Shown here one piece after another: positions 2,742-31,239 of a stretch of 60,523 nt of DNA. The notes beneath the pieces are model-generated. The model saw only the letters and a program-made list of their open reading frames with translations. It was not told the DNA's origin and ran no database searches. Position 1 is the first letter of the stretch. Each line of letters starts with the position of its first letter. Position numbers and translations under genes: made by a program. The stretch is from a candidate division Hyd24-12 bacterium UBA5074. GTDB lineage: Bacteria > Fermentibacterota > Fermentibacteria > Fermentibacterales > Fermentibacteraceae. The DNA lies in contig DIAQ01000108.1 in NCBI GenBank assembly GCA_002414865.1, forward strand, positions 471-60,993, read 5' to 3'.

Positions 2742-3113
2742 ATGGATTCCGACGGCAGGCAGAAAGTCTTCTCGGGCAGGGACAGGAGGGCGCATCCTCG
2801 CGCCAGTCTCGACCTGGATGTGAGCATAGGCATGGACGACATGCCGGTCCTGCCGGTCATAACCCTCAACCTCAGCGCATCAGGCCTCTACTGCGTCAGC
2901 CGCATGAGCCTCGGGGAACTTTCGAGGATAGAGCTGGTAATAAGGCTGGACGAGGAACACGAGATTTCCGCGCGGGCCGTCGTCATCAGACAGGAGCCCC
3001 TCTCGGACGGCAGCTTCGGCATAGGGATGTTCTTCACCAGCATCAGCGACGAGAACAGGGCCATAATCTCGGAGATGGTGGCTCGGGCAAACGAGAAGGC
3101 CGGCCTGGAATGA
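2742..3113 (+). CDS. Stand-alone PilZ domain protein (c-di-GMP receptor)
   Basis: RRAHPR (RxxxR) and NLSASG (D/NxSxxG) motifs; C-terminal GIGMFF beta strand. Confidence 0.85.
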   Translation: MDSDGRQKVFSGRDRRAHPRASLDLDVSIGMDDMPVLPVITLNLSASGLYCVSRMSLGELSRIELVIRLDEEHEISARAVVIRQEPLSDGSFGIGMFFTSISDENRAIISEMVARANEKAGLE

Positions 3114-4192
3114 GACGACTCCTGCTCCTGCTCCCCCTGGTGGCAGTCTGCGCGACGGCCTCGGCCGCCAAGTACGCCGGCGAGTTCATGTACGCAGGAG
3201 CCGGCGCGCGCGCCCTGGGCATGGGTGGAGCCTTCTGCGCCATCGCCGACGATGCGACGGCCGCCTACTGGAACCCCGCGGGCCTCGTCAGGCTCTCCGG
3301 TCAGCAGGCTCAATTCATGCACAGCGAGAGGTTCGGCGGCCTGATAAAGTATGACTACCTGGCATATGCCCGGCCCTACGGAACAGGCGCGCTCGCGGCC
3401 AGCCTCTTCAGAACCGATGCTGGCGACGTTGCCGACACCACCGATCTTCAGTGGTACGACACCGGCTCGGACGGAGTGGCGGGAGTCGACGGGGAAGGCG
3501 AGCCCGGGGACTCCGGCAACGACGACTACGATCCCGACACCAATCCGGGAGGCACGGAAGGCAACGGGGAGTGGGACCCGGGCGAGGAGCTGATCTACGA
3601 CGAAGGCCGCATCACATGGGGCAGCGCGGTCGACTATGCCCTCTACCTGTCCTGGGCGCGGCCGGTCACCGATGAGCTCTCGGCGGGTCTGAGCGCCAAG
3701 ATAGTCCAGCGCAGCCTCCTCGATCACAGCGCGTTCGGGGCCGGCATCGATGCGGGCGTCCAGTGGAGGCCCTCCGAGCGCTTCTCCGCCGGCCTCAATC
3801 TGCAGGACACCTTCGGCACGCATGTGTTCTGGGACACCGGCAGCAACGAGAGCGTCCTGCCCACGGCCAAGCTGGGGGTCGCCACAAGCTGGTACCTGGG
3901 CCGCTTCTCCACCATGGCCACCTTCGCCGCCGACGGGGACTTCCGCTTCGAGGGGAGGCGCTACGCCGCCCAGTACCACGTGGGCGACGTGAGCCTCGAC
4001 ACGCACTTCGGCGTCGATCTCCGCATCCATGACCGCGTCGGTCTCAGGTTCGGAGCCTCTGAAGGGAACATCACTGCGGGCGCCGGCCTGAGCCTCGGGC
4101 TCTTCGGACATCCCGTAACCCTCGACTACGCCTTCCTGGGCCACGAGGAGCTCGATGACACCCATCGCTTCTCCCTCGGGGTCGGCTTCTGA
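3110..4192 (+). CDS. PorV/PorQ (UPF0164)-family outer-membrane beta-barrel protein
   Basis: ATGA overlap with PilZ; signal peptide MRRLLLLLPLVAVCATASA; GAGARALGMGGAFCAIADDATAAYWNPAGL; C-terminal LDYAF...THRFSLGVGF. Confidence 0.82.
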   Translation: MRRLLLLLPLVAVCATASAAKYAGEFMYAGAGARALGMGGAFCAIADDATAAYWNPAGLVRLSGQQAQFMHSERFGGLIKYDYLAYARPYGTGALAASLFRTDAGDVADTTDLQWYDTGSDGVAGVDGEGEPGDSGNDDYDPDTNPGGTEGNGEWDPGEELIYDEGRITWGSAVDYALYLSWARPVTDELSAGLSAKIVQRSLLDHSAFGAGIDAGVQWRPSERFSAGLNLQDTFGTHVFWDTGSNESVLPTAKLGVATSWYLGRFSTMATFAADGDFRFEGRRYAAQYHVGDVSLDTHFGVDLRIHDRVGLRFGASEGNITAGAGLSLGLFGHPVTLDYAFLGHEELDDTHRFSLGVGF

Positions 4193-11148: not shown

Positions 11149-13065
11149 ATGGTGGTCCTGTGCCCTGCCCTGATGTGCGTCGCGGCGATTTCCGGCCCGG
11201 GCACCTGCCATGATATCGCAGCCTTCACGCGCTCGGTTCCATGCCTGGTTCTGGGGCCTGTCACAGCCAACATCTGCGATATCCTGGACTATGACCTGGC
11301 GATAGAGATACTCCCTTCCCAGCAGGAGATAGCAGGAACGGCCGCCATCACGCTGACCAGCGCGGGCGGCACGATCTACCAGGTTCCGCTGAACCTCAGA
11401 CAGCTGGAAGTCTCGGGAGTGTGGGATTCCACCGGGCCGCTGGCATTCACCCATGAAGGCGACTCGCTGATCGTCACGCTCACCGATCCGGTGTCGGTCG
11501 GAGAGGAGAGGACGGTGAGCGTGCAGTACTCCGGCCAGCCCTGGAACGAAGGAGCAGGTAAGTTCGGAGGCTTCTGGTTCCACCCCAATGTCTCGTATCA
11601 GATGGGAGTGGGCGTCTATTCGGCCCAGCCGTCGATGGGGAGATGCATGTTCCCGTGCTGGGACCATCCATCAGACAAGGCCACCTTCGAATTCTCCATC
11701 ACAGTGGACGACACGGTGGAGGTCGTGGCCAACGGCGAGCCTGCCGGCGTGCAGTACGCAGGCGGCAAGGCGACCTGGAGCTGGGTGCTCGACCAGCCCA
11801 TGTCCACCTATCTCGCCGCGATATCGGCATCCGAGTACGTCGACCTTGTGGACTCGACCTATTCATGGATCCATTATTACGTATACCCCAATGAGATAGC
11901 GGATGCGCACGGAAGCTTCGCCAATGTCGATCTAATGATGGATGCACTCCAGGCGAGGTTCGGACCTTATCCGTGGCAGTGCAAGTTCAGCTATGTCGAA
12001 ACCCCCAAGGGCGACATGGAGCACACCACCGAGGTCTACCACCTGCAGTCGCTCATCAACGGCCAGACCAACAACGATCCGGTCGTCGTCCACGAGATGG
12101 GCCACATGTGGTGGGGCAACTGCGTCACGGAGTCCGACTGGAACGATGTCTGGCTCTCGGAGGGCTTCGCCACTTACTGCGAGGCCGTGTGGGCGGAGCA
12201 CTACGGACCTTCGGCATACACCCAGTACATGGTCAACGAGATCATGGTTCCCTACCTGCAGAGCGGAGAGGTCTTCCCCATGGGCGATCCCGAGGAGCTG
12301 TGGAGCTACACCTCCTACCAGAAGGGGGCGAGCGTCCTCCATATGCTCAGGTGCATCATGGGGGACGATGCCTTCTTCTCCGGACTCGGCTCGTATTTCG
12401 ACGATCACCAGTTCTCGCTGGCGACCACCGCCGATCTCAGGCAGCACATGGAGGCGGCCGCAGGCGGCGACCTGGGCTGGTTCTTCGACGAATGGGTCTA
12501 CGGCTTCGGATATCCCGCCTATGACATCGGCTGGAGCGCCGTGCAGTCAGGCTCGGACTGGCTGGTCACCATAACGGTGGATCAGATCCAGGGCACAGGG
12601 TCATTCTTCACAATGCCCCTGCAGTTCGAGATCGCCGGCGGGTCCTCGTCGGAGATGGTGGAATTCTGGAACGACATTCAAGGGGACAGTCAGATCTTTG
12701 CGGTAGGATTCGAGCCGGAACTTGTGAGATTCGACCCGGGACATCATGTGCTTTCCACTGCTCTCCTCGGAGTCGGCGAGGCACCTGCGCCCCCCGGGGG
12801 AGGCACTGGCGTCATCAGGGTCTTCCCGAATCCGTGCCGCGGCGCCCTGGACGTGGAATGGCCCGGCATGGAAGCCAGCGACATGCAGGTGACAGTGTTC
12901 GACCTCTCGGGGAGGGCCGTGCTCAGGGAGAGTTTCGCCCCTGGAGAGATCAGGCTGGACCTGGGGGAACTGCCGCCAGGCACCTATCTGCTCGAGGCGA
13001 GGGGAGAGGGCAACCTCAGGCAGACTGCGGCATTCCAGGTGGCCGGTGGAAGGGAAGCCTTCTAG
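11149..13065 (+). CDS. M1 family zinc aminopeptidase with T9SS/Por-type C-terminal sorting domain
   Basis: FPCWDHPSDKATF, GDMEH, HEMGH-x18-E (WLSEGFATY), YQKGASVLHMLR; C-terminal VFPNP...VFDLSGR...LPPGTYL. Confidence 0.9.
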   Translation: MVVLCPALMCVAAISGPGTCHDIAAFTRSVPCLVLGPVTANICDILDYDLAIEILPSQQEIAGTAAITLTSAGGTIYQVPLNLRQLEVSGVWDSTGPLAFTHEGDSLIVTLTDPVSVGEERTVSVQYSGQPWNEGAGKFGGFWFHPNVSYQMGVGVYSAQPSMGRCMFPCWDHPSDKATFEFSITVDDTVEVVANGEPAGVQYAGGKATWSWVLDQPMSTYLAAISASEYVDLVDSTYSWIHYYVYPNEIADAHGSFANVDLMMDALQARFGPYPWQCKFSYVETPKGDMEHTTEVYHLQSLINGQTNNDPVVVHEMGHMWWGNCVTESDWNDVWLSEGFATYCEAVWAEHYGPSAYTQYMVNEIMVPYLQSGEVFPMGDPEELWSYTSYQKGASVLHMLRCIMGDDAFFSGLGSYFDDHQFSLATTADLRQHMEAAAGGDLGWFFDEWVYGFGYPAYDIGWSAVQSGSDWLVTITVDQIQGTGSFFTMPLQFEIAGGSSSEMVEFWNDIQGDSQIFAVGFEPELVRFDPGHHVLSTALLGVGEAPAPPGGGTGVIRVFPNPCRGALDVEWPGMEASDMQVTVFDLSGRAVLRESFAPGEIRLDLGELPPGTYLLEARGEGNLRQTAAFQVAGGREAF

Positions 13066-13566
13066 CTAGCGTCCGAGGAGGATGACGGAACCGGCAGGCG
13101 CTCCTCCCGCCATCACGAGATAGACGCCCTTCGCCAGTCCGGAGAGGTCGAGCCGTGCCACGCCCCCGGCGCCTGCAGGACTCCTGCCGACCTCTCTGCC
13201 GAGCAGGTCGACGACCGACGCGGTCTCTCCGTCCCGGAGCCCGGTCACCGTGACGAAGTCCGCGGCCGGGTTCGGCTCGACCGAGATGGATGGAGGGGGC
13301 GGCGAGCCCTCCGCCGATTCCCACCAGGTCCTGTAAATGGCCCCGTATGGGCAGTGCTGCACGCAGATCCCGCATGCGTTGCACAGGTCGGGGTCGATCC
13401 AGGCATCGCCTCCCGACAGGGAGATCGCCCCCTCGGGACACCAGGAGATGCAGTTGCCGCATCCGGGGCAGACCGAGGGGTCGACCTGGTAGATCCAGCC
13501 CATGAGCGCCCCGGACGCCCCCGCGAGGCAGAGTGCGGGAAGCACGGCCACAAGAGCTCTGCGCAT
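13066..13566 (-). CDS. Exported 2x[4Fe-4S] ferredoxin fused to a T9SS-type C-terminal sorting domain
   Basis: Start at 13566 (GGAGGA RBS, TGATG coupling to trmH). Signal MRRALVAVLPALCLAGASGA; CPGCGNCISWCP and CNACGICVQHCP; then VEPNPAAD...VVDLLGREV...LSGLAKGVYLV. Confidence 0.82.
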   Translation of the reverse strand: MRRALVAVLPALCLAGASGALMGWIYQVDPSVCPGCGNCISWCPEGAISLSGGDAWIDPDLCNACGICVQHCPYGAIYRTWWESAEGSPPPPSISVEPNPAADFVTVTGLRDGETASVVDLLGREVGRSPAGAGGVARLDLSGLAKGVYLVMAGGAPAGSVILLGR

Positions 13567-14129
13567 CAGTCCTCCATGTCCTCTTCGAGCGAAGGGGAAG
13601 AGACCCCGCACGGCGCCGGGAGTATCCATCCCGCCGCCAGGCGCATCCTCTGTATCTCCATGGCCACCACCGCAAGGGCGCTGGCGACGTTCATGCACGA
13701 CCTGCGGCCGGTCTGGGGCAGCCCCACCACCATGTCCGCCCCCGAGAGGACATCCCCGGACACGCCGAGCGCCTCGTTGCCGAAGACGAAGGCATCGGAC
13801 ACCGAGAAGCCAGCATCGAAGAGCGTCCGGGAGCCGCGCCCGCCCTCGACCGCCACGATCCTCCTGCCGGTGGCCTTAAGCCAGCCCGCAGCCTCGGAGG
13901 CCTGGTCGAAGTGCCTCCAGAGGACGGCCTCCTGAGTGCCCCTGGCGGTATGGGCCAGCCTCCTGTTGCCGGGCAGCGCGCAGCATCCGCACAGGAACAG
14001 CGCACACGGAGAGACGGCCTCGGCGGTGCGAAAGGCCGAGCCCACGTTGAAGGCGCTCCTGAAGCGGTCCAGGACGAAGACCGGGGTGCCTGTTGAAAGG
14101 TGCAGCTCCGTGGAGTAACATCCTGACAT
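13566..14129 (-). CDS. TrmH/SpoU family RNA 2'-O-methyltransferase
   Basis: VLDRFRSAFNVGSAFRT, VFGNEALGVS, LPQTGRRSCMNVASA; start is 14129 or 14153. Confidence 0.88.
   Translation of the reverse strand: MSGCYSTELHLSTGTPVFVLDRFRSAFNVGSAFRTAEAVSPCALFLCGCCALPGNRRLAHTARGTQEAVLWRHFDQASEAAGWLKATGRRIVAVEGGRGSRTLFDAGFSVSDAFVFGNEALGVSGDVLSGADMVVGLPQTGRRSCMNVASALAVVAMEIQRMRLAAGWILPAPCGVSSPSLEEDMED
14093..14121 (+). promoter_or_regulatory. Putative sigma70 promoter inside trmH giving a leaderless comEC mRNA
   Basis: TTGAAA-N17-TAACAT; ATG 14128 is 7 nt after the -10 box. Confidence 0.6.
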
Positions 14130-15423
14130 GGAGCTTTCGCCGGTTCTCTTCATCTATGTGGCCGCCTTCCTGACCGGACTATACTGCGGCCCGGTCAGCC
14201 CCGGATATGCCGTACCGGCTCTTGCCGCCGCAGGGGCCGTGGCGGTGGCCGTCTCGGGTCGGACGGGCGCGGCGCGGGGGCTTCTCGCATGCGCGCTGTT
14301 CCTCCTCGGCTCTGAGAGGGCGACCTGCGGCGCGGGCGGATCTGCCGGAGCCCTTCCGGAAGGGAGGGACGCCATCCTCAGGGGCCGGGTCGGCGTGGTG
14401 ACCGAACACGGGCTGTTTCTCGAGACCGCCTCCGGGAGGATATGGGTCAGGGGCGAGAGGGCAGCGGGCAGCTGCATGGAGGGCGACTCCATGCTGGTCA
14501 TGGGTTATGCGGACAGCGGCAGCATCAGCGGCATGGCCTTCGAGATCAGGCCCTCGGCCGATCCTCTGACACAGGCCAGGCGCCGTCTCGCTTCCCTCTG
14601 GGCGGACAGGTGCGGGCCGGGACAGGGCGCCTCTCTGGTGTCCGCGCTGCTCGTGGGCGAGCGCAGCGGGATGCCGGACAGGATGCGCAGGGTGTTCAGG
14701 GATTCGGGTACATCCCACATCCTCTCTGTTTCCGGCTTCCACGTGGGCATGGTCGCGGCCGCGGTCTTCTTCGCGCTCAGGAAGGTGGCGGGAGGGAGGC
14801 GATGGGCGGGCTTCGCCGCGGTCCTTCTGGTGGCGGGATACGTTCTCCTGACGGGGGCAAGGCCTCCGGCGGTCAGGTCGGGCTTCATGTCCGCAGCGGT
14901 CATCATCGGGGCGGGCGCCGGAGTGAGGCTGAAACCGCTGGTGGTGTGGTCCCTGGCCGCCATCCTGGTCCTGGGCATCTCCGATTCGGTCGCGAGGGAC
15001 GCGGGAGCCCAGATGTCCTTCGCCGCCGTCCTCGCGCTGGTGCTTCTCTCGGTGAGGTTCGGAGGGCGGCTTGGAGGCCTGCTCACCAGCCTGTACTCGG
15101 GCGTCTGCGTCACACTCTCCCTGGTCCCTCTCATCGCGTCCACCTACGGCGTTTTCCAGCTCTCCTCGCCATACGCCACGCTGATGTCGGTTCCCTTCAT
15201 GGTGTGCATGATGGTCGTCGGTGCGCTTGCCCTGCTGCCTGCCGGCAGCCTGCCGGGCTCGCTCGCAGGGCCGGTGGCGGCGGCCTGGCTCGGAGCTCTC
15301 GATGCGATCACGCTCGAGCCCGTGGGGTTCGGAGGCGCTGCGGAGGCAGTCGCATGGTTCTGCTGTCTTGCCGCGCTTCTGTATGTCTCGAGGAGAAGAG
15401 GCTTCCTGCGGAGGTTCCGCTAG
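14128..15423 (+). CDS. comEC: ComEC/Rec2 family competence membrane protein (no metallo-beta-lactamase domain)
   Basis: ALLVGERSG, FRDSGTSHILSVSGFHVG, GARPPAVRS, GAQMSFAAV. Confidence 0.87.
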   Translation: MELSPVLFIYVAAFLTGLYCGPVSPGYAVPALAAAGAVAVAVSGRTGAARGLLACALFLLGSERATCGAGGSAGALPEGRDAILRGRVGVVTEHGLFLETASGRIWVRGERAAGSCMEGDSMLVMGYADSGSISGMAFEIRPSADPLTQARRRLASLWADRCGPGQGASLVSALLVGERSGMPDRMRRVFRDSGTSHILSVSGFHVGMVAAAVFFALRKVAGGRRWAGFAAVLLVAGYVLLTGARPPAVRSGFMSAAVIIGAGAGVRLKPLVVWSLAAILVLGISDSVARDAGAQMSFAAVLALVLLSVRFGGRLGGLLTSLYSGVCVTLSLVPLIASTYGVFQLSSPYATLMSVPFMVCMMVVGALALLPAGSLPGSLAGPVAAAWLGALDAITLEPVGFGGAAEAVAWFCCLAALLYVSRRRGFLRRFR

Positions 15424-15430
15424 CGGGGCT

Positions 15431-16108
15431 TCAGGTCGAGTCGCCCTCGAAGGTCACGAGGATGCTTCCCCCGTTGTCCAGGGCGTCTTCGGTCCTGTCG
15501 ACGCAGAAGGCATCCACCTCGGCCCCCAGAGGGAACTCGAGCGGCAGGGTGTCGCCCGGCTGGGCGGCGGAGGCCGATCTGCCGCTGCCCGGCTCCGAGA
15601 AGAGAAGGACGATTATGCCGTCGTAGCCGGTGAGATTGTCATTCTCCACGATGGCCAGATACCGGCCGGGGGAGAGGGAGATGCGCCTGGAGCGGTCGGT
15701 GATGGCGAGATGGTACGCCGACGAGACAGTGATGCTGGGGGTTAGGTGGGGGATGAAGGGCAGGAACCTGACCGAATCGACCGCTGTCGGAGTGGTGACG
15801 ACGATGGTCACGGAGTCGCTGAACCCGGGCTCCGGCTTCCAGGTTACGCTCCTGCCGAGCGCCTCGGGCTCGTCCGTCTCCATGAAGAATCCGGCCGAGC
15901 AGGTCCACTGGGCCGAGCTGCCGTCCGGGAGGACCGTGGAGAGGTATGTCGTGCCCGAACCCGACGCATCGATGGACGCGATGATGTTCCCCGACTCCGC
16001 GGGCTGCCCCATGGTCTCCCTCACGAGCCAGGTGCCGAGGGCGAGCACGGGGAGAACGAAGGGGAGGGCTATGGCCAGCGCTGTCAGCAATCTCTTCCTT
16101 CTGGGCAT
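15431..16108 (-). CDS. Hypothetical membrane-anchored protein
   Basis: 225 aa, GGAGG RBS, positively charged N-terminus plus one TM helix followed by a beta-rich region. Confidence 0.65.
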   Translation of the reverse strand: MPRRKRLLTALAIALPFVLPVLALGTWLVRETMGQPAESGNIIASIDASGSGTTYLSTVLPDGSSAQWTCSAGFFMETDEPEALGRSVTWKPEPGFSDSVTIVVTTPTAVDSVRFLPFIPHLTPSITVSSAYHLAITDRSRRISLSPGRYLAIVENDNLTGYDGIIVLLFSEPGSGRSASAAQPGDTLPLEFPLGAEVDAFCVDRTEDALDNGGSILVTFEGDST

Positions 16109-30330: not shown

Positions 30331-31239
30331 ATGCACTCTGTCACCTGTCTTCTGCTCGCCCTGCTCGCCTTGGCGGCCATGCCCGCGTCGGCCGGCGTGT
30401 ACCGCGATGCCGGGGCAGCCGCCTACCAGTTCCTGAAGCTGGAGGTGTCGCCCAGGGCTTCGGCGCTCGGAGGCACGGTCCTCCTCAACTCGGGCGGGTT
30501 CGGCGTGCTCAACAGCCCCGCTGCGACCGCCTCGCTCGACGGCGGCGCCTTTGTCGCGAGCCATGGCGAATACTTCGGCTCCGTGGCGCAGAACTGCATC
30601 GCCATGATATCCGCGTCGGGCCGCTGGCGTTTCTCCGGAGCGGTTTCCTCCGTCTCCGCCTCCGGGCTCGAGCTGAGGCAGGAGGCCACCTCCGAGCCGG
30701 AGGGGACGTTCAGTGTGTGGAACATAGCCATGGCCGGGGGAGCCGCGGTCAGGACCGGCCCCCTGGATCTCGGGGTCTCCCTGAAGCTCATCAGAGAGAA
30801 GATCCACACCGACGGCAGCTGGGGCTTCTCCGTCGATGCGGGGGCCATCGCCAGGCCGCTGCCCTGGCTGGAGGCTGGCATAGCCCTCCTGAATGCCGGC
30901 CCTTCCATAGAATACGCCCGCTACGACAGCTACAGGCTTCCCCTGACCTGGCGCGCAGGGACGAGGGTCAGCGCCGCCCTCCCGTATGCCGGCCCGGCAT
31001 CCCTTGTCGCAGAGGTCTTCAAGCCCATAGACAACGACGCCGGGGGGGCGCTGGGTGCCGAATTCCTCCCTGTCCGCTGGCTGGCGCTGCGCGCCGGCAC
31101 GCATATCGGCGACGACTCGCGGAGCTTCACCGCGGGGGCGGGGCTGACTGCAGGAGGCTGGACGCTCGACTACGCCTGGGTCCCCGGGGAGTACTCGCTG
31201 GGGGACATCCACCGCATCTCGCTCTCCAGGAGCCTCTAG
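30331..31239 (+). CDS. Second PorV/PorQ-family outer-membrane protein
   Basis: Signal peptide; FLKLEVSPRASALGG, NSPAA, GFSVDAG, LPLTWRAG, WLALRAG, LDYAW, DIHRISL. Confidence 0.8.
   Translation: MHSVTCLLLALLALAAMPASAGVYRDAGAAAYQFLKLEVSPRASALGGTVLLNSGGFGVLNSPAATASLDGGAFVASHGEYFGSVAQNCIAMISASGRWRFSGAVSSVSASGLELRQEATSEPEGTFSVWNIAMAGGAAVRTGPLDLGVSLKLIREKIHTDGSWGFSVDAGAIARPLPWLEAGIALLNAGPSIEYARYDSYRLPLTWRAGTRVSAALPYAGPASLVAEVFKPIDNDAGGALGAEFLPVRWLALRAGTHIGDDSRSFTAGAGLTAGGWTLDYAWVPGEYSLGDIHRISLSRSL

Follow-up and report, generated by a model that had tools for sequence, protein, structure and literature searches.

A predicted exported dicluster ferredoxin with a type IX secretion sorting domain in Fermentibacterota, a candidate surface electron carrier

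According to the textbook view, iron-sulfur (Fe-S) proteins mature in the cytoplasm and exit it only in the folded state by way of twin-arginine translocation (Tat), and the means of extracellular electron transfer are multihaem cytochromes, flavins, or conductive pili. The nearest published concepts to the protein described here are the porin-cytochrome conduits and the flavin-based extracytosolic systems, in which NapH-like or DsbD-like membrane proteins of bacteria poor in cytochromes supply electrons to redox proteins that are secreted or lipidated (Meheust et al. 2021, eLife, PMC8238504). The present analysis concerns a stretch of 60,523 nucleotides, hereafter the window, from the candidate division Hyd24-12 bacterium UBA5074 of the phylum Fermentibacterota (GCA_002414865.1, contig DIAQ01000108.1, positions 471 to 60,993). 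An open reading frame on its minus strand (13066..13566) encodes 166 residues followed by a TAG stop codon. [quoted passage not shown] An earlier note on the window had pointed to this very frame and had named no characterised example of such a protein. Our full-text literature searches likewise returned no description of a T9SS-tailed, Sec-exported, or extracellular ferredoxin of this kind.

The ferredoxin domain is of the clostridial type and spans residues 24–81 (13324..13497, minus strand). Pfam Fer4 matches the 166-residue protein in two stretches with 53.2 bits (E 2e-14). Each stretch has a complete CxxCxxCxxxCP motif, and both motifs lie where the earlier note had placed them. Specifically, motif 1 is C33-x2-C36-x2-C39-x3-C43-P44 (13435..13470, minus strand), and motif 2 is C62-x2-C65-x2-C68-x3-C72-P73 (13348..13383, minus strand). 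All eight Cys residues are invariant in both sets of relatives that were aligned (n=27 and n=18). The AlphaFold2 model, built on the 27-sequence alignment of relatives, is composed of a helix at residues 3–22, the ferredoxin fold at residues 24–81, and a seven-strand β-sandwich at residues 95–163. The predicted local distance difference test score (pLDDT) is 88.6 for the whole protein and 89–95 across residues 30–80, and the domain has the pseudo-twofold (β-α-β)2 arrangement of ferredoxins. In a Foldseek comparison with the PDB, this part is 0.9–1.5 Å away from solved dicluster ferredoxin domains. The best examples are the ferredoxin of C. acidurici (1fca, TMt 0.87) and 9g03_E (TMt 0.91), with a root mean square deviation (rmsd) of approximately 0.9–1.1 Å. 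The domain opens with a conserved WIYQVDPxxC segment directly after the hydrophobic N-terminal segment. It forms a strand at residues 24–28 in the model, which we take to be the counterpart of the N-terminal AYxIxxxC strand of clostridial ferredoxins. A signal peptidase cut directly before this strand would thus leave a nearly minimal ferredoxin. The protein contains a complete dicluster ferredoxin, and the binding of two [4Fe-4S] clusters is predicted.

The T9SS type-A sorting domain occupies residues 93–166 (13069..13290, minus strand). It carries the PNP, GR, and GxY motifs and a hydrophobic final strand ending in R. That the tail is a T9SS CTD, as claimed earlier, agrees with both curated models, which are passed by small amounts. 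PF18962 (Por_Secre_tail) gives 28.0 bits against a cut-off of 27, with the match stopping three residues short of the stop codon, and TIGR04183 gives 24.8 bits against a cut-off of 23 on the C-terminal 77 residues alone. PF18962 is also matched by 22 of the 27 relatives. A profile of the family's CTD, compared with the PDB sequences, retrieves the C-terminal domains of 5jvk_A (1.3e-8), PorZ (5m11_A, 1e-4), and the lipase 7pzj (2.4e-4), and, more weakly, 8glk_D and 8qb1 (mirolase, 0.037), both of them chains of a CTD on its own. Foldseek with the whole model returned mostly ferredoxin matches, and the tail gave only weak Ig-like matches to Kgp. A tblastn search with the CTD against the own genome (2.16 Mb, 125 contigs, ca. 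90% complete) found two weak CTD matches only; these domains are too divergent for pairwise search, and the evidence from the hidden Markov models stands. Between the two domains lies the Pro-rich linker ESAEGSPPPPS (residues 82–92; 13291..13323, minus strand), which is variable in the alignment and has the lowest pLDDT of the model (62). The linker is the expected region of CTD removal, and cleavage would take place there.

A Sec-type signal peptide is predicted at residues 1–20 (MRRALVAVLPALCLAGASGA; 13507..13566, minus strand) based on its sequence features, comparisons, and the modeled helix 3–22. It has an MRR n-region, a 14-residue hydrophobic core, and small residues at positions −3 and −1 (AGA or SGA). 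Across the family, the N-termini contain zero to four basic residues, a hydrophobic core of 12–15 residues, and mostly a small residue at −1. A lipoprotein reading was rejected, as C13 is preceded by P-A-L and this is not a lipobox. Six of the 31 frames with an Fe4S4 motif in the genome have a strongly hydrophobic extreme N-terminus, and these are the CTD-ferredoxin of the window, four ferredoxins of a single operon, and one NapH-like membrane protein. No N-terminus of this kind is present on the ordinary cytoplasmic ferredoxins of the genome. The genome has 34 CTD matches including the window ferredoxin. The 33 others are on typical secreted enzymes, mostly in open reading frames with plain Sec signals, e.g., MRIAIVLVLCGVQAALA and MKTVALLAVALVLAGTATA.

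Genes for CTD-dependent secretion are also present in the genome. SprA reaches 384 bits summed over its matches, above the cut-off. Three PorU-like genes score 408, 315, and 289 bits, just below the cut-off of 420, and one of the PorU-like genes is adjoined by a PorV-like gene with 115 bits. A canonical PorU-PorV pair is located on contig C61, not in the window.

Fermentibacterota and Cloacimonadota are fermenters or syntrophs, poor in cytochromes, that abound in digesters and sulfidic sediments. The identical 166-residue protein is found on 16 contigs in public assemblies, and family members occur among Candidatus Fermentibacteria/Hyd24-12, including Aegiribacteria and Sabulitectum. In a whole-genome survey, 50 of the 70 Fermentibacterota species genomes, representing 10 of 14 genera, have one full-length copy. 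A more distant set with the same architecture and a Cloacimonadota-type CTD is present in 16 of 201 Cloacimonadota genomes, and in one of the Cloacimonadota genomes over 140 open frames are matched by this type of tail. The earlier note had suggested a survey of the Fer4 plus Por_Secre_tail architecture, for which these counts give the taxonomic spread. It had also raised a chimeric assembly as a risk, which is excluded by the occurrence of the same architecture in more than 60 independent genomes. When the ferredoxin core (54 columns) is compared, a split with a support of 83/89 separates the CTD-bearing ferredoxins of the two phyla from the small ferredoxins of the operons and the two-domain 'group B' ferredoxins. 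The split suggests one origin of the ferredoxin-CTD fusion, with moderate support from a short alignment.

The 'group B' family is found in Cloacimonadota and Bacteroidales and is widespread. Its members have a Sec-like signal and then two dicluster ferredoxins, which are joined by a long linker rich in Ser, Thr, Pro, Glu, and Lys. Examples are P0016, P0017, P0026, P0027, P0030, P0031, P0038, P0042, and others, with loci L031, L033, L044, L045, L052, and L060. They apparently represent another class of exported ferredoxins in anaerobes of the Fibrobacteres-Chlorobi-Bacteroidetes (FCB) group.

The four other ferredoxins with hydrophobic N-termini are encoded outside the window by a tightly packed operon of six genes (contig C28:15221-19410; L087:6222-10411). 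It contains a lipoprotein ferredoxin of 276 residues with three cluster motifs, two signal-bearing ferredoxins of 163 and 77 residues (the latter starting with MTARRLLL), a lipobox-bearing ferredoxin of 80 residues, a signal-bearing protein of 406 residues, and a DsbD_2 membrane protein whose C-terminal domain is rich in Cys. All of the operon ferredoxins are devoid of a CTD. The top three non-self matches of the CTD-ferredoxin family profile in the own genome are ferredoxins of this operon. The 406-residue protein has no Pfam match and is predicted to be an outer-membrane barrel. Its model has 20 long antiparallel β-strands (pLDDT 86.6; predicted template modeling score, pTM, 0.76), and among known structures it is most similar to the barrels of TonB-dependent transporters, to MtrB (rank 2), and to OccK porins. 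Relatives of the barrel end with ...YPGSFSF and occur in 61 of the 70 phylum genomes, in all 14 genera. No open frame with at least two CxxCH motifs, and no multihaem cytochrome candidate, was found in the own genome at its 2.16 Mb and 90% completeness. Both the operon and the fact that no such candidate was found lend indirect support to a function outside the cell, in extracellular electron transfer, sensing, or iron capture. In four Cloacimonadota loci, the CTD-ferredoxin gene itself is directly upstream of three genes with overlapping stops and starts. They encode a signal-bearing ferredoxin of ca. 80 residues, a lipobox-bearing ferredoxin of ca. 80 residues, and a longer protein (over 350 residues) with a signal. 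One Cloacimonadota locus has a NapH-like membrane polyferredoxin and a lipoprotein ferredoxin upstream of the CTD-ferredoxin.

We propose, with a probability of roughly 45%, that the window protein is a ferredoxin, displayed on the surface or secreted, that forms the last member of a haem-free path for electrons across the envelope and has its clusters loaded outside the cytoplasm. SecYEG would export the unfolded apo-protein, and signal peptidase I would cut directly ahead of the WIYQVDP strand. The eight thiols would stay reduced in the anoxic periplasm, and the two [4Fe-4S] clusters would be loaded there, either spontaneously from Fe(II) and sulfide or with the aid of the DsbD_2 membrane protein of the operon. 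The folded CTD would then be passed to PorV/SprA, and a PorU-like sortase would remove it. The product would be a ferredoxin of ca. 7 kDa, free or anchored on the cell surface, acting as the outermost carrier of the ferredoxin-based route. The C28 operon would provide the periplasmic and outer-membrane parts, namely two lipoprotein ferredoxins, two secreted ferredoxins, the 20-strand barrel, and the DsbD_2 protein. Through this route, a fermenter without cytochromes could pass reducing equivalents to acceptors outside the cell, for example partner cells, S0/polysulfide, or Fe(III) minerals. Members of the phylum are reported from anoxic, sulfidic settings rich in FeS and are described as fermenters that have no respiratory chain and may reduce S0 (PMC5030696), and such a habitat makes the proposed chemistry plausible. 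The T9SS is also able to transport folded cargo (PMC9251779). A wider proposal, which is tentative and on balance doubtful, is that Fermentibacterota and some Cloacimonadota run a haem-free conduit across the envelope whose carriers are all small [4Fe-4S] ferredoxins, which would be Sec-exported unfolded and matured outside the cytoplasm. Lipoprotein and soluble ferredoxins of the periplasm would come first, then a dedicated barrel of ca. 20 strands, with the T9SS-sorted ferredoxin outermost.

Several observations weigh against the proposed surface carrier. The CTD-ferredoxin gene is outside the ferredoxin operon in Fermentibacterota, and a SpoU methylase gene is adjacent to it in 16 of 25 loci of this phylum (L002-L026), or in 17 of 26 if the window is counted. 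The CTD-ferredoxin and the barrel show no co-occurrence signal among the 70 phylum genomes, as 44 have both, 6 the ferredoxin only, 17 the barrel only, and 3 neither (odds ratio ca. 1.3). The Fermentibacterota barrel and the Cloacimonadota protein in the same operon position gave no significant BLASTP match, and homology of the two is therefore not claimed. An inner-membrane entry point for electrons was not identified; a candidate NapH-like polyferredoxin is encoded on contig C88 near 8186 (minus strand). The Sabulitectum-type subclade (MLKIIALAFVLLAPMRW) has no canonical AxA cleavage site. We know of no pathway for loading Fe-S clusters outside the cytoplasm. As for the secretion machinery, GldM (TIGR03517) had no match in the own genome and none in any control genome, which leaves the sensitivity of the model unproven, and GldL (TIGR03513) had no match in the own genome or in the 70 phylum genomes, with the controls unmatched as well. 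With GldL and GldM undetected, the T9SS here is non-canonical at best. Hence, a CTD pathway in this genome is plausible but non-canonical, and the findings suggest that the T9SS outside Bacteroidota may be reduced or divergent.

The strongest rival, itself unlikely, is that the exported and T9SS-sorted module of eight Cys residues captures iron, sulfide, or preformed FeS clusters from its FeS-rich surroundings in a hemophore-like manner, or senses the external redox state or iron. In the case of capture, the barrel and the periplasmic ferredoxins would relay clusters or metal inward. The architecture speaks for this reading to the same extent as for an electron carrier, the operon barrel resembles TonB-dependent metal transporter barrels as much as MtrB, and UreH-like metal permeases are relatives of the DsbD_2 (PF13386) proteins. 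However, beyond the Cys residues the ferredoxin features are as well preserved as in bona fide electron carriers (Fer4 53–67 bits), and the C28 operon shows no plug domain, TonB box, or ATP-binding cassette (ABC) importer. The arrangement of ferredoxins in series suggests a relay of electrons over a relay of cargo, and the NapH-like membrane polyferredoxin upstream in one Cloacimonadota locus points the same way. An FeS-rich habitat (PMC5030696) would suit capture as well. The functions offered in the earlier note, i.e., extracellular electron transfer, sensing, or iron capture, all stay at the level of what we infer from the sequences.

Next in plausibility, and again unlikely, is a ferredoxin that stays in the periplasm, held by an uncleaved anchor or exported by a normal signal, with a CTD-like Ig domain serving for docking. 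The tail is placed at the extreme C-terminus with the full set of type-A motifs, which argues against a docking domain, as do the 33 further CTD matches on typical secreted enzymes and the presence of SprA, PorU-like, and PorV-like genes. In Cloacimonadota, moreover, the tail belongs to the CTD type that is so frequent in one genome. A periplasmic location would fit the undetected GldL and GldM (unmatched in the controls too), the Sabulitectum-type N-termini without the AxA site, the CTD scores barely above the cut-offs, and the other exported ferredoxins of the genome, all of which have no CTD.

The earlier note had considered a hand-off from Tat to the T9SS next to Fe-S loading in the periplasm. 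In the former, the clusters would be inserted in the cytoplasm, the folded protein would be exported by Tat via its MRRALV start, and the T9SS would take it up. The window protein does have RR followed by hydrophobic residues, TatC is encoded in the genome, and folded cargo is moved by the T9SS (PMC9251779). However, the twin arginine is found in only 2 of the 27 relatives, namely the window protein and one other, and several relatives have one basic residue or none in the N-terminus. The Cloacimonadota relatives have KK or RK instead and start with MKKK, MKKEK, MRKR, or MKFKK. The window protein (M-RR-ALV) has only a single Met as its n-region, a strongly hydrophobic h-region, and no basic residue in the c-region, which differs from a canonical Tat signal with a conserved S/T-R-R-x-F-L-K, a long n-region, and a weakly hydrophobic h-region. 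As the earlier note had pointed out, MRR also begins a PorV signal in the window. This PorV/PorQ-family outer-membrane protein (3110..4192, plus strand) starts with MRRLLLLLPLVAVCATASA and matches NF033709 with 91.7 bits (cut-off 90) and PorV2 with 164.6 bits. Outer-membrane barrels cross the inner membrane unfolded. With MRR heading such a barrel and RR not conserved, Sec fits better than Tat, and R in place of K is expected in a genome of 67% GC. A crude regular-expression scan of the genome for canonical Tat signals yielded spurious frames only and has no bearing on the set of Tat substrates. Tat as a family-wide property is not supported by these comparisons, and we consider the hand-off improbable. 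Of the two routes offered, we favor export through Sec, with the clusters loaded outside the cytoplasm.

It is very improbable that the ferredoxin is cytoplasmic and held by a membrane helix at its N-terminus in the manner of RnfB, with a tail unrelated to secretion, because the basic residues before and the acidic or neutral ones after the hydrophobic segment (WIYQVDP) predict an N-in, C-out orientation, the 12–15-residue hydrophobic core is too short for a stable transmembrane helix, the paralogues with lipoboxes sit beside an outer-membrane barrel, and the TIGR04183 and PDB CTD profile matches count against it, even though the gene is near an rnf operon in three or four Fermentibacteraceae relatives and RnfB of the own genome also has a hydrophobic N-terminus.

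At the locus itself, the ferredoxin gene has a GC content at third codon positions (GC3) of 0.83, in line with the rest of the genome's genes. Its ATG (13566-13564) shares one base with the TGA of the upstream gene (TGATG), and a GGAGGA ribosome-binding site is read directly at 13570..13575 (minus strand), 3 nt 5' of the ATG, where the earlier note had seen it. A longer open reading frame of 210 residues from GTG 13698 was rejected, as it falls within the upstream gene and the relatives begin at the ATG position with their own ribosome-binding sites. The upstream gene is translationally coupled and encodes a SpoU-family RNA 2'-O-methyltransferase (13566..14153, minus strand; PF00588 81 bits). 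The coupling thus stands as previously described, but the label trmH is too specific, since the protein scores 42 bits on the TrmH equivalog model against a cut-off of 227. The methyltransferase is probably context rather than a functional partner of the CTD-ferredoxin. The convergent neighbor is an M1 aminopeptidase that also has a T9SS CTD (11149..13065, plus strand; Peptidase_M1 111.8 bits, Por_Secre_tail 32.9 bits) and is the top-scoring CTD match of the genome. The TAG stops of the aminopeptidase and ferredoxin genes abut in a CTAGCTAG palindrome with zero intergenic bases, and there is no space for a terminator between them. The called N-terminus of the aminopeptidase, MVVLCPALMCVAAISGPG..., is odd as a signal, and the real start may differ.

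Farther upstream, a 225-residue protein with a signal or anchor (15431-16108, minus strand) has no NCBIfam match and is kept beside the locus across the phylum, with 47–69% identity in relatives. It adjoins a ComEC-like protein of only 431 residues that consists of the Competence domain alone (14128-15423, plus strand). A second protein resembling the PorV/PorQ family is encoded at 30331..31239 (plus strand; NF033709 84.3 bits, just below the cut-off of 90). In the Fermentibacteraceae loci L001, L005, L018, and L020, the CTD-ferredoxin gene is not beside a SpoU gene and is divergent from an rnfCDGEAB operon. The downstream genes there encode DUF2179, ArsR, an ArsP permease, thioredoxins, and a CcdA/DsbD-like protein. 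In the Aegiribacteria-type locus L009, the CTD-ferredoxin gene is followed by genes for a small protein and two proteins with CxxxCxxC-like Cys motifs, which resemble PqqD and radical-SAM proteins as judged by sequence alone. The shorter Aegiribacteria-type locus L012 has only the small protein visible beside the CTD-ferredoxin gene. Overall, the gene neighborhood in Fermentibacterota is uninformative about function.

A ferredoxin with a predicted Sec-type signal and a T9SS tail, present in single copy phylum-wide, makes both textbook rules directly testable. Should the ferredoxin be loaded and active outside the cell, the T9SS would gain a redox-cofactor cargo, and the ecology of digester and sediment fermenters with regard to S or Fe reduction and interspecies electron transfer would need revisiting. 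Cluster assembly outside the cytoplasm, if true, would be the first such case for Fe-S proteins and a new route of cofactor maturation, and an all-ferredoxin conduit would add a new class to the machinery of extracellular electron transfer. Even as an apo-protein, or as a binder of metal or FeS, the protein would be a new kind of T9SS cargo.

Among known systems, T9SS type-A cargo such as RgpB and PorZ of P. gingivalis, mirolase of Tannerella forsythia, and the enzymes of Flavobacterium johnsoniae is alike in having a Sec signal (predicted for the window protein), a passenger, and a C-terminal β-sandwich of ca. 75 residues (TIGR04183/PF18962). The passenger of the window protein is a 58-residue Fe-S ferredoxin, whereas the others carry an enzyme or adhesin, and the host belongs to Fermentibacterota rather than Bacteroidota, with GldL/GldM undetected. 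The literature searches brought up no T9SS cargo of this type, with a redox cofactor. Clostridial ferredoxins (1FCA; 9G03) share the two CxxCxxCxxxCP motifs and the fold (ca. 1 Å rmsd). They are soluble and cytoplasmic, in contrast to the window protein with its export and outer-membrane sorting signals. The Tat-exported proteins NapG, NrfC, HybA, DmsB, HiPIP/PioC, and Rieske are likewise Fe-S electron carriers outside the cytoplasm. They use a conserved twin arginine, their own or a hitch-hiked one, and are loaded in the cytoplasm, whereas the window family has no conserved RR and appears to depend on Sec. To our knowledge, none of them crosses the outer membrane by the T9SS.

The porin-cytochrome conduits (MtrCAB of Shewanella, Pcc of Geobacter, and PioAB/MtoAB) would be analogous, in function only, in their sequence of periplasmic carrier, barrel, and surface carrier. 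In both cases a dedicated barrel is encoded with the carriers, which in the C28 operon are four exported ferredoxins. The MtrB barrel has 26 strands, and that of the C28 operon has ca. 20 predicted strands. The conduits use multihaem cytochromes, whereas here the carriers are ferredoxins and no frame has at least two CxxCH motifs. MtrC is delivered to the surface by the type II secretion system, and delivery by the T9SS is proposed for the window ferredoxin. The surface component is unlinked to the operon in Fermentibacterota but linked to an analogous gene set in Cloacimonadota. In the NapH-like/DsbD-like systems, the carriers are flavin mononucleotide (FMN)-binding proteins flavinylated by ApbE (PMC8238504), whereas here they are ferredoxins, one of which is T9SS-tailed.

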